Below, piece after piece: positions 1 through 40,279 of a stretch of 40,279 nt of DNA (its first letter is position 1; the number at the start of each line of letters is the position of its first letter). This stretch comes from a virus. Below the pieces are notes generated by a model. That model worked only from the letters and a program-made list of their open reading frames with translations, made no database searches and was not told where the DNA came from. The stretch is from positions 1 to 40,279 of the IMG/VR virus record IMGVR_UViG_3300044564_000013; one strand, given 5' to 3'. The translations under genes were made by a program, and so were the position numbers.

Positions 1-127
1 CGGCTTTGTAAGCTGCGCACAACAAAACCGCAGGTAGGAGGCTTGCATAGGCAAGTCGCGTCCTTATACGTCCTTAGGCGTCTAAAAATCAGCGGCGCTC
101 CCAGCCATCGAACGCGCACGCTATCGC
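1..127. repeat. Terminal direct overlap; nt 1-127 are identical to nt 40153-40279 (circular-assembly overlap or terminal redundancy)
   Basis: Both copies read cggctttgtaagctgcgcac...cgcacgctatcgc with no mismatch. The unique length is therefore 40152 nt. Confidence 0.95.
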
Positions 128-1234
128 CTCGGCGAACACGTCAACGTCCGGGCGGAAGTAGTTGACCTCTCCCACGCCCTTCCCGGCGTGGCCCATCATC
201 TTCTCCAAGAGGTCGCGGTCCATGTGCATCTCCGAGCGCATGTTGGTGCGCCACGACGCCCGGAGGTTGCGCATGGGCGCCTCCTCGTGCCCAGCGAGCG
301 CGCCGCCCCTTGCGAACGCCCTGCGCCACGCGGAGTCGATTGCGTTGCGCCCGACGATGCCGCCAAGCCCGTCATCGCACAGCCACTCGCTGCCGCTCGC
401 CTCGGCCTCCGACACGCGCTCCCTGAGCCACAGCGACCACGGCTCTGGCACCACCACCCAGCGCGTCGAGGCCTTGGTCTTCGGAGGGCCTATGCGCCTG
501 CCGCGACCACCGAGGAGCTGCCTCGTCACGTGGGCGCACGCAACCGTCATGCCGTTCACGTCGCGGAACTCGAAGTCACCGGGCTTGAGGCCGCACGCCT
601 CGCCGACGCGGCACGAGCCGAACGCCTGCATCACGAACGGCACCTCAAGCACGCTGCCCCTCAGCGCGTCTGCCATGTCCGCGCACTCAGAGAGCGGCCA
701 TATCTCCTTCGAGCGCTCGTCCACCCTCTCGCTCGTGCGGAACTTTGAGGCGGCAACGTTCTCCTCGACCAGCCCGTACAGCCTCGCGAGCCTCAGAATC
801 TCGCGCATCACAATCTGGACGCGGACGCCCATGGCCTTCGACTTGGTGAGAATCCACTCCTGGTATTCGAGCGGGGTTATCCCCGTCACGGCAACGTTCC
901 ACCAGCGCGGCTCGACGTGGGTGCGGTAGACGCCCATGTAGTGCTCGTAGGACTTGGGCTTGAGCGAGCCGTCGCGCAGCCTGCCCTCAAGCTCGGGGAC
1001 CCAGAACCTCTCCGCGACCTCGGATACCGTCATCGTGGGCGTGTCATCCCAGTGCGCGACCTGCCTCTCTGAGAGGAACCTCGCAGCCTCCCTGCGGGTC
1101 CACGGGCGCGTCATCGAGTGCCTCGCGTACCCGCGACCGTCGCGCTCGTCCGCCATCCACCGCACGCGGTAGACCCCATGGCGCACGCACTCAATCGAGC
1201 CGAACGAGCGCCGCTGGCCTTGTGCCATAATCAT
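89..1234 (-). CDS. int: Tyrosine recombinase / phage integrase
   Basis: Box I Arg is in GSCRVGEACGLKPGDF and the Lys is in PPKTKASTRWVVVP. Box II reads RNLR...MGHAGKGVGEVNYF, giving the His and Tyr nucleophile. The ORF is open to 1300, but the region upstream of 1234 overlaps a strong hairpin, so the start is taken at the MIMAQ... cluster (1234 or 1228). The 3' end lies inside the terminal overlap. Confidence 0.9.
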   Translation of the reverse strand: MIMAQGQRRSFGSIECVRHGVYRVRWMADERDGRGYARHSMTRPWTRREAARFLSERQVAHWDDTPTMTVSEVAERFWVPELEGRLRDGSLKPKSYEHYMGVYRTHVEPRWWNVAVTGITPLEYQEWILTKSKAMGVRVQIVMREILRLARLYGLVEENVAASKFRTSERVDERSKEIWPLSECADMADALRGSVLEVPFVMQAFGSCRVGEACGLKPGDFEFRDVNGMTVACAHVTRQLLGGRGRRIGPPKTKASTRWVVVPEPWSLWLRERVSEAEASGSEWLCDDGLGGIVGRNAIDSAWRRAFARGGALAGHEEAPMRNLRASWRTNMRSEMHMDRDLLEKMMGHAGKGVGEVNYFRPDVDVFAEAIACAFDGWERR

Positions 1235-1268
1235 CACCGTCCGTCCCCGTCTAAGGGGATAGGTCGCA

Positions 1269-1304
1269 GCCCGTGGGTATTGACTTCGCCGGTCACCCAC
1301 GGGC
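1269..1304 (-). terminator. 10-bp GC-rich hairpin between the lipoprotein gene and int; possible terminator or insulator
   Basis: gcccgtgggt (1269-1278) pairs with acccacgggc (1295-1304). A second 7-bp hairpin ctcatta/taatgag lies at 1315-1334. Neither has a clean U-tract. Confidence 0.35.
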
Positions 1305-2075: not shown

Positions 2076-2717
2076 CTATTCGTACTCTCTGCTTGCCTGC
2101 CACCACACCACGGTTCCGTGGTATTCGATGGTGTGGTCATTGCCGGTTATCACGATGTCCTCGTAGCCGTCCCGCGCGGAGTCTGGCGAGAGGACAACCG
2201 TTGTCGCTCCCCTGTACAGCCTGCGCATGACGTAATCAGCACCGTCTATCGACACGACTGCGATTGAGCCGTTCTGTGGTGCAACGTCAGGGTCTATGAG
2301 GATGAAGCAGCCTGCTGGGTAGACGTTGCTCATGCAGTCGCCCTCTACCTCTAGGAAGTAGGCGTTCGGGTGGTGCTCGAATACCTCAGCTGGCAGAGAC
2401 ACGCGCTCTTCGAGGATGTCTGGCTCCTGCGCGTCTCCCGCGTGCACGCGCCCAAGCAACGGTGCGTAGGCTGGCTTGGACGGTTCTGGGATTATCGCGC
2501 CATCGGGAAGTCCGTCTACCATCTTGTCGGTGACTATCGCAGTCGTTGGCACGCCGAACGTGGCTGCGAGCTTCTGAACCATTCCCATACGTGGGTTCGA
2601 CCAGCCGTTCTCCCACTGAGTGACCGTCGAGCGAGAGACGCCTATCTTGTCGGCAAGCTCCTCCTGCGTGAGGTGGTTCTGTTTGCGGAGTGAACGTATG
2701 TTTGTTCCGACAGACAT
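2076..2717 (-). CDS. CI/LexA-type repressor: XRE HTH plus S24 peptidase-like C-terminal domain
   Basis: HTH is IRSLRKQNHLTQEELADKIGVSRSTVTQWENG. A LexA-like linker GRVHAGD carries the Ala-Gly site. The S24 fold motifs are VEGDCMS...YVMRRL. The GGAG RBS lies 8 nt before the ATG at 2717. The gene is divergent from a Cro-like gene. Confidence 0.9.
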   Translation of the reverse strand: MSVGTNIRSLRKQNHLTQEELADKIGVSRSTVTQWENGWSNPRMGMVQKLAATFGVPTTAIVTDKMVDGLPDGAIIPEPSKPAYAPLLGRVHAGDAQEPDILEERVSLPAEVFEHHPNAYFLEVEGDCMSNVYPAGCFILIDPDVAPQNGSIAVVSIDGADYVMRRLYRGATTVVLSPDSARDGYEDIVITGNDHTIEYHGTVVWWQASREYE

Positions 2718-2833
2718 TCTCACCACTCCAAACCGACGTTGGACAACTTTTTAGAACATTTTAGTGAATCGATATTGACTACGGAATGTTTGTTTAACTA
2801 TCATCGCATCAGCAACGGGGAGAGGAGGGGTGT
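2718..2833. promoter_or_regulatory. Immunity switch region with back-to-back divergent promoters
   Basis: Rightward candidate promoter is TTGACT (2775-2780), an 18-nt spacer, then TATCAT (2799-2804), followed by the RBS GGAGAGGAGGGG. Leftward candidate -10 is TAAAAT (complement of 2758-2763) with a weak -35. This is a low-GC stretch with short AACATT/AATGTT inverted words that may be operators. Confidence 0.5.
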
Positions 2834-3031
2834 ATGCAGACTCTCAAGGAAGTCAGGAAGCAGCGCGGGGTTCTCCAAAAGGCAGTTGCCGAGCATCTTG
2901 GCATCTCAAGGCAGACGTACAGCAAGTACGAGAACAACCAGGAGCGCATGACTATCAGTCAGGCAAAGGCTGTCTGCGAGTTCCTGCACTGCGACATCGA
3001 TGATGTTTTTTTGCCTGTTGAGGGCAACTAA
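2834..3031 (+). CDS. Cro-like XRE-family HTH regulator
   Basis: 65 aa. The HTH is QKAVAEHLGISRQTYSKYENNQ. The gene is divergent from the repressor and has a strong RBS. Confidence 0.85.
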   Translation: MQTLKEVRKQRGVLQKAVAEHLGISRQTYSKYENNQERMTISQAKAVCEFLHCDIDDVFLPVEGN

Positions 3032-3032
3032 A

Positions 3033-3050
3033 CAAACCTATTGAGGTTTG
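3033..3050 (+). terminator. Small hairpin immediately after cro; possible attenuator, tR1-like
   Basis: caaacct attg aggtttg forms a 7-bp stem, followed by tctggttg. It is a weak intrinsic terminator at best. Confidence 0.3.
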
Positions 3051-3243
3051 TCTGGTTGCCGCTTACCTGGCTGCACTACAGCACCACCCGCACCCTGACA
3101 ACCGAAAGCACCGCACGGAGACGTGCCCTAGCAGCGAGCCTAGAGAGCGCGATGACCTGCGAACACGGGTTGTGGATGCGTCCACGGGCGTCCGAGGAGC
3201 GGTGCGGAGTCGGCAACTGGCCAAGAAGTCCAGACCGGCGAAA

Positions 3244-3269
3244 TGGTAATCGGTCACGCATGTCGGGCG
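3244..3269. repeat. Left arm of a 26-nt imperfect inverted repeat; partner at 3427-3452
   Basis: tggtaatcggtcacgcatgtcgggcg compared with the reverse complement of cgcccgacctgcatggccgattacca gives 23/26 matches. One of the three mismatches would be a G-U pair in RNA. Confidence 0.85.
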
Positions 3270-3326
3270 TGGCCTACACGATAGACGCAGGATGGGGGCG
3301 CTGGTGAAACCCCATTTCCAAGAGAC

Positions 3327-3353
3327 GCGGGTTCGACTCCCGCACCGACTGCA
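3327..3353 (+). other. tRNA/tmRNA-like T-arm plus 3' acceptor-strand-like segment; not a complete tRNA
   Basis: gcggg-ttcgact-cccgc is a perfect 5-bp T-stem with a canonical 7-nt TTCGANT loop. It is followed by accgact, g, ca. The flank agagacgcgggttcgactcccgc resembles tmRNA and tRNA 3' regions. The only 5' partner found is agtcggc at 3208-3214 (6/7 pairs), about 145 nt upstream. No cloverleaf could be built. Confidence 0.4.
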
Positions 3354-3426
3354 TGGCAGAGCGCGGAGTCACGCCAGCAATTCCGCAAAGCTCCTCCCGC
3401 AAGCCGGTTAGCACTGTCGGAATGTG

Positions 3427-3452
3427 CGCCCGACCTGCATGGCCGATTACCA
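3427..3452. repeat. Right arm of the 26-nt inverted repeat; partner at 3244-3269
   Basis: See the left arm. The two arms enclose 157 nt, which contain the T-arm/acceptor-like element. Confidence 0.85.
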
Positions 3453-3678
3453 GCACCAAGAACTACCCGTGCCACCCGCGCGTGCGACGCGGATTCGCCC
3501 TGTGGGCCTACTCCGTCCCACCGATGGGCGTCTCAAGGACGGCACGAGGCGCTGCCCAAAATTCTCAGCGCCGCCGCCCTGGCCCGCGCCGCATGCGCGG
3601 ATGGCACGGAAGGAAGCAAAAAGGAAAGCCCGTCACCTGATAGCGCAGGGACGGGCGCGACACATGGAAGGAGCCAAA

Positions 3679-4497
3679 GTGTCAGAAGAGATTCTACCCC
3701 AAGTGTTCGACAACCCGGAGTTCGGTACCATCCGGGTCGTTAAGAGCGAGTCCGGTGAACCACTGTTCCTTGTTAAAGACATATGCGACTTCTTTGGGGT
3801 CACTAACAGGAACAGAGTTTTGCAACAGCTCGATGATGACGAAAAGGGGGGTACGCAAATCGACACCCCCGGTGGGAAGCAGACGATGACCTACCTAACC
3901 GAGGCTGGTCTGTACCACTTCCTGTTCATCATCCAGCCATCAAAAGCACGAGGAGTCCCGCAAGAAGCGATTGATGCCAAGTGCAAGCTGGTTAACCGCT
4001 ACAAGCGCTGGGTGACCCACGACGTGCTCCCGTCCATCCGCAAGCGTGGCGGCTACATGGTCGCACGGCCAGACGAGACCCCGGAGCAGCTGCTGGCACG
4101 CGCCCTCAAGCTCGCGGACGCCACGCTGCGGGAGAGGGACGCGCGCATCGCCGAGCTTGAGCCGAAGGCGCTGTTCGCTGACGCGGTTGCCGCGTCTGAC
4201 GGCACGTGCCTCGTGGGCGAGCTGGCGAAGATGATGCGCCAGAACGGCCTCGACATCGGCCAGAACCGCATGTTCGAGCTGCTGCGCAACGACGGGTACC
4301 TCGGCAAGTCCGGCAGCAACCGCAACGTTCCGACGCAGATGGCAATGGACCTCGGCCTCTTCCGTATCAAGGAGACGGCCATAACGCACAGCGACGGCCA
4401 CGTGACCATCAACCGCACGCCAAAGGTGACCGGCAAGGGCCAGAGGTACTTCGTTGACCGCTACTGCATCAAGAGGAGGCTCCCGGATGCTGGATAG
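3679..4497 (+). CDS. Phage antirepressor: Bro-N domain plus KilA-C/ANT C-terminal domain
   Basis: Bro-N-like N-terminus is FDNPEFGTIRVVKSESGEPLFLVKDICDFFGV...LTEAGLYHFL. KilAC-like C-terminus is LFADAVAASDGTCLVGELAKMMRQNGLDIGQNRMFELLRNDGYL. An AAGGAG RBS lies 5 nt before the GTG at 3679. The upstream part of the track ORF (from 3424) is judged non-coding. Confidence 0.85.
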   Translation: MSEEILPQVFDNPEFGTIRVVKSESGEPLFLVKDICDFFGVTNRNRVLQQLDDDEKGGTQIDTPGGKQTMTYLTEAGLYHFLFIIQPSKARGVPQEAIDAKCKLVNRYKRWVTHDVLPSIRKRGGYMVARPDETPEQLLARALKLADATLRERDARIAELEPKALFADAVAASDGTCLVGELAKMMRQNGLDIGQNRMFELLRNDGYLGKSGSNRNVPTQMAMDLGLFRIKETAITHSDGHVTINRTPKVTGKGQRYFVDRYCIKRRLPDAG

Positions 4498-17311: not shown

Positions 17312-17428
17312 GACACTTGTTTGTGTGTCGCTTGTTGGCATGTACTATGACACACGTTTGTGTGTATAGCTAGCGACTAAATCATCTTCACAATCTGTAC
17401 ACAATTGAGTGTCACACCTGAACGTGTG
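17312..17428. promoter_or_regulatory. Divergent control region with three ACAC-N4-8-GTGT palindromic operator-like sites
   Basis: Sites are gacacttgtttgtgtgtc (17312-17329), gacacacgtttgtgtgt (17349-17365) and cacacctgaacgtgtg (17413-17428). Sites 1 and 2 are 14/16 identical. Site 3 sits between a possible TTGAGT (17405) and TACACT (17430) promoter for the XRE gene. Confidence 0.6.
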
Positions 17429-17466
17429 TTACACTAAATACGCAGGTAGACGGCATAAAAGGAGGA

Positions 17467-40152: not shown

Positions 40153-40279
40153 CGGCTTTGTAAGCTGCGCACAACAAAACCGCAGGTAGGAGGCTTGCAT
40201 AGGCAAGTCGCGTCCTTATACGTCCTTAGGCGTCTAAAAATCAGCGGCGCTCCCAGCCATCGAACGCGCACGCTATCGC
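40153..40279. repeat. Second copy of the 127-nt terminal overlap; includes the 3' end of int again
   Basis: Identical to nt 1-127. Confidence 0.95.

Follow-up and report, generated by a model that had tools for sequence, protein, structure and literature searches.

The stretch of DNA analyzed here, hereafter the window, is the complete IMG/VR virus record IMGVR_UViG_3300044564_000013 (40,279 nucleotides, nt), and our subject is the gap at positions 3032-3678, which separates a cro-like helix-turn-helix gene (2834-3031, plus strand, Pfam HTH_3) at its upstream edge from an antirepressor gene (3679-4497, plus strand, with Bro-N and KilAC/ANT domains) at its downstream edge. This gap is non-coding and composed of modules, one of which, here termed C, is conserved, with covarying stems and a fixed orientation, while another, termed E, is optional. 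Our best explanation, put forward tentatively and at slightly less than an even chance, is that the gap constitutes a modular structured RNA leader of the early operon, the long stems of which would probably act as processing stalks for ribonuclease III (RNase III). An earlier sequence-only reading of the window had proposed, among other options, a novel structured RNA or an elaborate leader for the antirepressor, and both of these fit the results reported below; the transfer RNA (tRNA)-like form that it envisaged for such an RNA does not, since the module concerned, E, is dispensable and absent from six related phages.

The claim that the gap holds no credible open reading frame (ORF) is borne out by the absence of protein-family matches, of a codon-position signature and of maintained reading frames. 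Gap ORFs on both strands yielded no matches to Pfam or PHROG, and they lack the marked excess of G+C at third over second codon positions that is seen in all the real genes of the window. Their frames and lengths are not preserved in related phages, the alignments of the gap to those relatives contain indels that are not multiples of three, and no conserved ORF spanning the interval was seen in the homologous phages. Likewise, the GTG at 3679 can be accepted as the antirepressor start: in the alignment it falls on the ATG with which the antirepressors of the relatives begin, and it lies 5 nt past the Shine-Dalgarno sequence GGAAGGAG, the two together occupying 3666-3681 on the plus strand. The gap as a whole is predicted to fold far better than shuffled sequences on either strand (z-score of about -5; z = -5.0 for the whole gap). 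A blastn search of the gap against 50,697 phage records returned no match, and the loci of relatives used here were fetched through antirepressor homologues, DNA patterns and cro proteins, either the identical one or members of its cluster. Comparison of these loci reveals a chain of modules that recombine independently, in the order of a hairpin over the cro stop codon (A), module B, the optional module E, module C and a hairpin (D) ahead of the ribosome-binding site. In locus L001 (500-740 and 1596-1800), and also in L077 and L091, a B-like leader precedes the antirepressor gene and C-D follows it, facing a C5 DNA methylase gene; what is a single gap in the window is thus divided elsewhere into two intergenic units.

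Module C (3467-3609, plus strand) is a 143-nt element predicted to form a three-way junction, made up of a closing stem of about 25 base pairs (bp) and two hairpins, and its ends constitute a second 26-nt inverted repeat (3467-3492 and 3584-3609) that the sequence-only reading had missed. Its fold has a z-score of -5.7, and its score against covariance model R1, the source alignment of which contains the window's own copy of C, is 157.9 bits. Five sequence types of C occur among the relatives, all of them predicted to adopt the same three-way junction; little or nothing changes in the junction sequences GGATTCGC, GCGTCTCAAGG and CCTG.CCCGCGCC, whereas the outer stem is fully rewritten from one type to another. 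In a MAFFT alignment of 12 sequences, 95.6% of the cells are paired and 16 of the 46 pairs have changed on both sides, as against 1-2 pairs when the partners are slid by 1-3 columns, and none of 500 shuffles reaches the observed covariation score. When 19 matches are aligned to R1, and hence fitted to that model, 94.8% of the cells are paired and 20 of the 46 pairs have changed on both sides; here the slid partners give 1-4 such pairs and 30-53% of paired cells, and again no shuffle out of 500 attains the covariation score. Within type 1, moreover, the same mismatch has been repaired both ways, one phage differing from another in this, C·A having become either T-A or C-G, and G·T either G-C or A-T. 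All 19 aligned copies are intergenic and lie on the early-gene strand, upstream of the antirepressor gene, of the C5 methylase gene, of a small membrane-protein gene or of inserted accessory genes. C is in this respect a conserved secondary structure with compensatory changes across diverged homologues, as judged from about five lineages and a model-fitted alignment. It has no match in Rfam 15 and, on these comparative grounds, appears to be a reasonable candidate for a new RNA motif, and a stronger one than E.

In one of the relatives (L081, 4192-4331), the antirepressor gene is followed by a stem-closed three-way junction of about 140 nt, which scores 47 bits against the C model (E-value 3e-5) and has a z-score of -3.4. 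It was considered as a fourth type of C, of which it has the architecture, and was not counted as such because it lacks the conserved cores; it may nonetheless be a distant fourth type.

Module E (3244-3452, plus strand) is the 209-nt cassette that contains the elements singled out by the sequence-only reading. Both the 26-nt inverted repeat (3244-3269 and 3427-3452; 23 of 26 positions, or 88%, complementary), which is the top inverted repeat of the entire 40-kb window, and the perfect T-arm-like hairpin (GCGGG/TTCGACT/CCCGC, 3327-3343, plus strand) are present as described, and the fold of E has a z-score of -5.1 over its 209 nt. E was found, as six sequence variants, in 15 of the fetched loci and is precisely absent from six distinct loci (L002, L003, L076, L086, L087 and L096), in which GGCGAA(A) and a short spacer lead directly to CCGTGCC. 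The breakpoints coincide with the base of the inverted-repeat stem, and comparison of the filled site (GGCGAAA-E-GCACC) with the empty site (GGCGAAAGCAAG) reveals no target-site duplication. Neither the window nor the fetched loci contain a second copy of E, and a strict scan for its terminal-repeat pattern in one genome from each of 185,579 species gave no matches. A less strict scan of IMG/VR for the terminal repeats gave five matches, which alignment identifies as chance or non-homologous, and an internal 22-mer of E has none there. Given its clean presence or absence, the lack of a target duplication and the lack of a second copy, E is an optional single-locus cassette, neither a typical miniature inverted-repeat transposable element (MITE) nor a part of the core leader.

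The variants of E are about 94-98% identical, save for one that carries an internal tandem duplication. This 27-nt duplication (ATAGACGCAGGATGGGGGCGCTGGTGA) is found in L097 and L101, at about 3403-3639. When the variable sites are mapped onto the minimum-energy fold of the window's own copy, a fold that is not informed by the variation, 6 of the 140 paired positions vary on the plus strand, compared with 11 of the 69 unpaired ones (Fisher p = 0.006). Of the six changes at paired positions, four preserve a G-U pair on that strand, and the other two lie in a weak 4-bp helix. The minus-strand fold, by contrast, presents no such bias (p = 0.27), and six of its pairs are broken by variants. Few events are involved, but the pattern provides modest evidence for an RNA transcribed in the same direction as the early genes. 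The T-arm-like hairpin is invariant among the variants except for loop position 6 (C to T), which fits a structural T-loop module, and no more than that. By eye, E could pass for an inverted or diverged copy of C (GCGCCCCCATCCTGCG versus GCGCCCCCATATCCTGCG). This relationship was ruled out: nhmmer and a covariance model run with filters off were both negative for E against the C family, and in Smith-Waterman comparisons against shuffles the best case, among six tests, was equalled or exceeded by 7 of 300 shuffles.

The T-arm-like hairpin and the acceptor-like strand next to it had suggested a tRNA- or transfer-messenger RNA (tmRNA)-like module, or else an attachment site derived from the 3' end of a host tRNA or tmRNA gene, and the resulting notion that E contains the relic of such a gene, either as a second attachment site or as a degraded phage tRNA, is now highly improbable and largely refuted. 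ARAGORN predicts no tRNA or tmRNA genes in the window; no full cloverleaf was obtained either with ARAGORN or with the Rfam tRNA model RF00005 at a score of at least 29 bits, and there is no D arm or anticodon arm. Neither ARAGORN nor Rfam detects a tmRNA, with its tRNA-like domain and tag frame. At gathering scores, Rfam 15 has no match in the whole window. A permissive search of 2900-3800 recovers a 21-nt T-arm fragment (RF00005 positions 43-63; 14.3 bits against a cutoff of 29; E-value 9.5), and no relevant match with an E-value of 10 or less to GOLLD, ROOL, raiA, HEARO, OLE, the C4 antisense RNA or the rest of Rfam 15. By our own arithmetic, a match of 14 bits would have had an E-value of about 0.002 had tRNA been the sole family tested, and this speaks for a relic, as does the fact that 21 nt of the T-arm and acceptor-like strand recur unchanged at the 3' terminus of a tRNA on two unrelated contigs of IMG/VR. 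That tRNA (L094, 8237-8327; L095, 1186-1276) is 91 nt long, has a long extra arm and is called Gln-CTG by ARAGORN. The nhmmer program extends the 21-mer match weakly (E-value 2e-4), on loci that had been pre-selected by the 21-mer itself. However, with a T-arm sequence as common as this one, six additional matching bases do not amount to evidence of descent; the T-loop core GGTTCRANYCC occurs once in the window, where 0.25 occurrences are expected by chance.

The remaining elements of the proposed tRNA-like module are accounted for by other pairings. The supposed 5' partner (AGTCGGC) and the D-arm-like CTGG-N9-CCAG that follows it (3208-3233) belong to a local hairpin at 3209-3239, which covaries (T-A to G-C) and is present in relatives with or without E. 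In the minimum-energy fold, the CCGAC of the acceptor-like strand pairs downstream with GTCGG (3415-3419), and a C-to-T change in one lineage maintains this pairing as G-U. With regard to an attachment site, the 24-mer GCGGGTTCGACTCCCGCACCGACT, which comprises the T-arm and the acceptor-like strand, has no exact match in the 185,579 species genomes, a search that addresses exact identity only, and the host junctions of integrated copies lie beside the integrase, about 60-220 nt beyond its gene; the attachment-site idea is not supported. Host genes abut the integrase side in L082, L083, L086, L087, L096 and L097, the gap is internal and intact in the integrated copies, and the breakpoints of E are at the base of its inverted repeat and not at 3327-3353. 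The window itself represents the entire genome, circularly permuted and about 40,152 bp long, of a temperate phage: positions 1-127 are repeated directly at 40153-40279 and the genome is therefore circularly closed, so that the phage attachment site must fall between the last late gene and the integrase gene (89-1300, minus strand). As regards the host side, the close prophage relatives adjoin two different host genes, one coding for an mnmA-like tRNA methyltransferase (L096, 1-199) and the other for an efflux-pump adaptor (1-41 in L082, L083, L086, L087 and L097), which suggests two integration sites.

The rest of the gap is made up of smaller elements. Hairpin A (3023-3060, plus strand) is a 17-nt inverted repeat across the cro stop codon, the variation of which among relatives is confined to the loop. 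It is followed on the same strand by a C-rich, G-poor stretch (3060-3120; 26 C and 12 G in 60 nt, a ratio of up to 2.2), predicted to be unstructured, the conserved part of which is CACCACCCGCACCCTGA.AACCGAAAGCA and which might possibly serve as a Rho loading site. Module B (3080-3243, plus strand) consists of a conserved block (3132-3159; CAGCGAGCCTAG..AGCGCGATGACCTG), a hairpin with a UGCG loop (3172-3185) and the terminal hairpin at 3209-3239 described above. The stem of the UGCG-loop hairpin is GTGGA/TCCAC in one type and CCAGTG/CACTGG in the type-2 relatives, so that stem-swapped hairpins, which speak for a structured leader, are found in B as well; the overall stability of B is unremarkable (z = -0.7). 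The block and the UGCG-loop hairpin (3132-3185) lie directly downstream of cro in a layout that recalls boxA-boxB. Between E and C, a purine-rich spacer (3453-3466, plus strand) travels with E, and its place is taken by a different spacer of 7-15 nt in the relatives without E.

C and D are joined by an A-rich linker (3610-3627, plus strand) that is an insertion hot spot, with accessory genes located there in relatives. These inserts (L002, 4106-4938; L082, 3776-4371; L087, 3611-4442; L098, 3770-4363) contain either minus-strand ORFs of 156-192 aa or a pair of ORFs, of about 95 aa on the plus strand and about 160 aa on the minus strand, with no Pfam matches on record. Hairpin D (3628-3656, plus strand; GCCCGTCACCTG...CAGGGACGGGC) recurs with an A-rich linker in relatives, directly before the ribosome-binding sites of several different early genes; L001 has two copies, and one T-A to C-G compensation was observed. 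No further copies of D or E beyond chance are present in the window. Read on the minus strand, hairpin D is followed by TTTCCTTTTTGC and looks like a textbook intrinsic terminator, a configuration also found before several early genes in the relatives.

How such a leader might work can be sketched as follows. The only promoter-like site nearby (TTGACT-18-TATCAT, 2775-2804) lies upstream of cro and would transcribe it; from there, a rightward early operon would extend through cro and the antirepressor gene to the later early genes, and the gap would be carried in its transcript as untranslated leader or intercistronic RNA. That leader would be a chain of independently exchangeable structured modules, in which E and C each consist of a predicted branched core held together at its base by an almost perfect stem of some 26 bp (26 bp with 2-3 mismatches in E, 24-26 bp in C). 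A conserved core within a stem that covaries freely is what a processing stalk looks like, and it is from this pattern that cleavage of the double-stranded stems by the host RNase III is proposed. Cutting would part the cro message from the downstream messages, possibly freeing the cores as small RNAs, and would thereby determine how stable the messages for the antirepressor and other early genes are and how well they are translated. E would then be an accessory domain, and neither a tRNA-derived gene nor a recombination site.

Several considerations weigh against this interpretation. That the modules act as RNA is something we infer from sequence comparison, and the same holds for the participation of RNase III and for the regulatory outcome. 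The types of C represent only about five independent lineages, and its mismatches do not favor either strand, as mismatches that would be G-U on the plus strand (29 cells in 10 pairs) are no commoner than A-C (34 cells in 12 pairs), and C might be a palindrome at the DNA level. Compensatory changes in long quasi-palindromes can also arise by template switching, without selection. For its part, E presents no pair changed on both sides, because only six closely similar variants are available. Finally, an RNase III stalk leaves the strong conservation of the C core unexplained.

The DNA-level alternative can be stated more broadly: E, and perhaps C, would be foldback or MITE-like elements, or recombination-prone palindromes, inserted at a hot spot of the early region or excised from it, traveling as passengers and devoid of RNA function. 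The exact coincidence of the E breakpoints with the base of its 26-nt terminal inverted repeat speaks for this alternative, and the mosaic breakpoints of the neighboring segments also fall at hairpin bases; the strand symmetry of the mismatches in the long stem of C and the tandem duplication within E in two relatives point in the same direction. We nevertheless regard this alternative as unlikely. E lacks a target-site duplication, neither the window nor any fetched locus has more than one copy of it, and its termini are without matches in the species genomes and have only unrelated chance matches in IMG/VR, where its internal 22-mer is not found at all. Furthermore, the termini of C vary and its core is conserved, the reverse of what is seen in transposase-bound terminal repeats; its short internal helices covary too, its orientation is constant, and the substitutions in E respect the plus-strand fold. 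It is equally doubtful that the hairpins serve simply as transcription punctuation, that is, as terminators or insulators, including some devoid of a U-tract, or as minus-strand terminators for reverse accessory genes, with a Rho site after cro in the role of lambda tR1. In several relatives C begins 12-25 nt past the stop codon of the upstream gene, and the stop of a minus-strand accessory gene abuts C where such a gene is present. A-rich plus-strand linkers amount to T-rich minus-strand tails after D and type-1 C, the C-rich stretch at 3060-3120 would suit Rho, and the early region of actinophage phiC31 reportedly contains terminators without poly-U, to judge by the title of the 1995 article by Ingham et al. 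But no hairpin on the plus strand is followed by a T-run, whether A, E, C or D, and a scan of 3032-3678 for intrinsic terminators found none; a simple terminator, in addition, would not need a conserved three-way-junction core. Terminators on the minus strand, as suggested by the A-rich linkers, were considered and retained only as a minor rival: the minus-strand tails are not T-rich in type-2 and type-3 C, so that the signal is inconsistent across types, and the early genes share the same excess of A over T. The mycobacterial RNA polymerase, according to PMC3993855, requires a U-tract at intrinsic terminators.

Two further possibilities give the RNA a role of its own. E and/or C could be genes for trans-acting small RNAs, the released cores of which would act as regulators or as T-loop decoys against host defence. 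RNAs that are cut out of precursors combine a conserved core with a freely varying stalk, as C does, the T-loop hairpin of E is nearly invariant across the six variants, and DicF, c4 and sar constitute precedents. To this we attach a low probability: no promoter or terminator belonging to the modules themselves was found, nor any Rfam family match or convincing complementarity of at least 12 nt elsewhere in the genome, and E is dispensable. More speculatively, and again with little likelihood in our estimation, C and optionally E might represent an undescribed class of phage non-coding RNA (ncRNA) in temperate phages of high-GC gut bacteria, with cores excised from the early polycistronic transcript by way of the covarying stalk of about 25 bp and targeting RNA polymerase, an RNase or a defence protein of the host, or the circuit that decides between lysis and lysogeny, instead of serving as punctuation; the core of E would in that case contain a T-loop module.

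Beyond the gap, the window encodes a LexA-like repressor with HTH_3 and Peptidase_S24 domains (2076-2726, minus strand), and HNH, HTH_17 and YqaJ genes lie downstream of the antirepressor gene. The relatives of its large terminase among actinophages are distant (below 31% identity), and copies nearly identical to the window locus are found in human gut assemblies; both observations make a Gram-positive gut bacterium of high GC content the probable host. In the assembly collection, 259 indexed blocks contain the exact cro protein. At 17340-17439, in non-coding DNA ahead of the packaging genes, lies an imperfect, AT-rich inverted repeat of 26 nt (73% complementary), possibly a late promoter or packaging signal.

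In lambdoid phages, the signals that govern the continuation of early transcription (nut, put, tR1) are found right after cro, and to our knowledge almost nothing has been established about this step in temperate phages of high-GC gut bacteria. Since the phage family studied here is apparently abundant in human gut metagenomes, C, if it is a true structured element preceding antirepressor, methylase and accessory genes, would offer an entry point to the timing of prophage early-gene expression and could become a new Rfam family. The gap also illustrates that a perfect T-arm with an acceptor-like 7-mer, set within a cluster of GC-rich hairpins, is no evidence of a tRNA-derived element, and the most conspicuous of its modules, E, proved to be the dispensable one. 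It is plausible, though unproven, that the gap is a structured leader or a new RNA, akin to the structured intercistronic elements known from phage early operons, and C is a candidate new motif within it.

Among known systems, E resembles tRNA, tmRNA and the YrlA Y RNAs in its perfect T-arm-like hairpin with a TTCGACT loop, and Y RNAs also in the long stem formed by its two ends; however, it has no cloverleaf, D arm or anticodon arm, and its acceptor-like strand pairs in the wrong direction. The Correia elements of Neisseria, MITEs with 26-bp terminal inverted repeats that are transcribed and cut by RNase III, offer another parallel: E is about 200 bp long, has 26-nt terminal inverted repeats, is polymorphic for presence or absence and lies in an intergenic region that is predicted to be transcribed. 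In contrast to Correia elements, however, it is single-copy, lacks a target-site duplication and occurs in no other genomic context. The sar RNA of P22 and the c4 RNA of P1/P7 are ncRNAs that adjoin an antirepressor gene and limit its translation (PMC12197685), and the candidate RNA of the gap likewise adjoins the antirepressor gene. Yet sar and c4, at 68-77 nt, act as antisense RNAs by pairing with the ribosome-binding site of ant, whereas no complementarity to the ribosome-binding site was found here; C, moreover, precedes genes other than the antirepressor gene, and the gap has no Rfam match.

Closer likenesses are provided by RNase III stalks and by the sequences that follow cro in lambdoid phages. 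As in the early intercistronic sites of T7, the N-leader hairpin of lambda and DicF of the dicB operon in prophage Qin, the long stems of the gap lie between early cistrons, either directly past the cro-like gene or ahead of the first early gene, and a stem length of 24-26 bp suffices for RNase III. The present stems differ from the T7 and lambda sites in closing large branched cores (91 nt in C and 157 nt in E), with a conserved junction in the case of C and a cleavage that is here predicted, and they have no sequence or Rfam similarity to the T7, lambda or DicF elements. With respect to lambda nutR-tR1 and HK022 putR, no N-like or Q-like protein was identified in the window and there is no sequence similarity, but the gap occupies the same position, immediately after cro. 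It also displays, like the lambda and HK022 regions, a conserved linear block followed by a small hairpin with a conserved UGCG loop and a covarying stem (3132-3185), together with a C-rich, rut-like stretch, and by analogy with these phages its structured RNA could act in cis on RNA polymerase.

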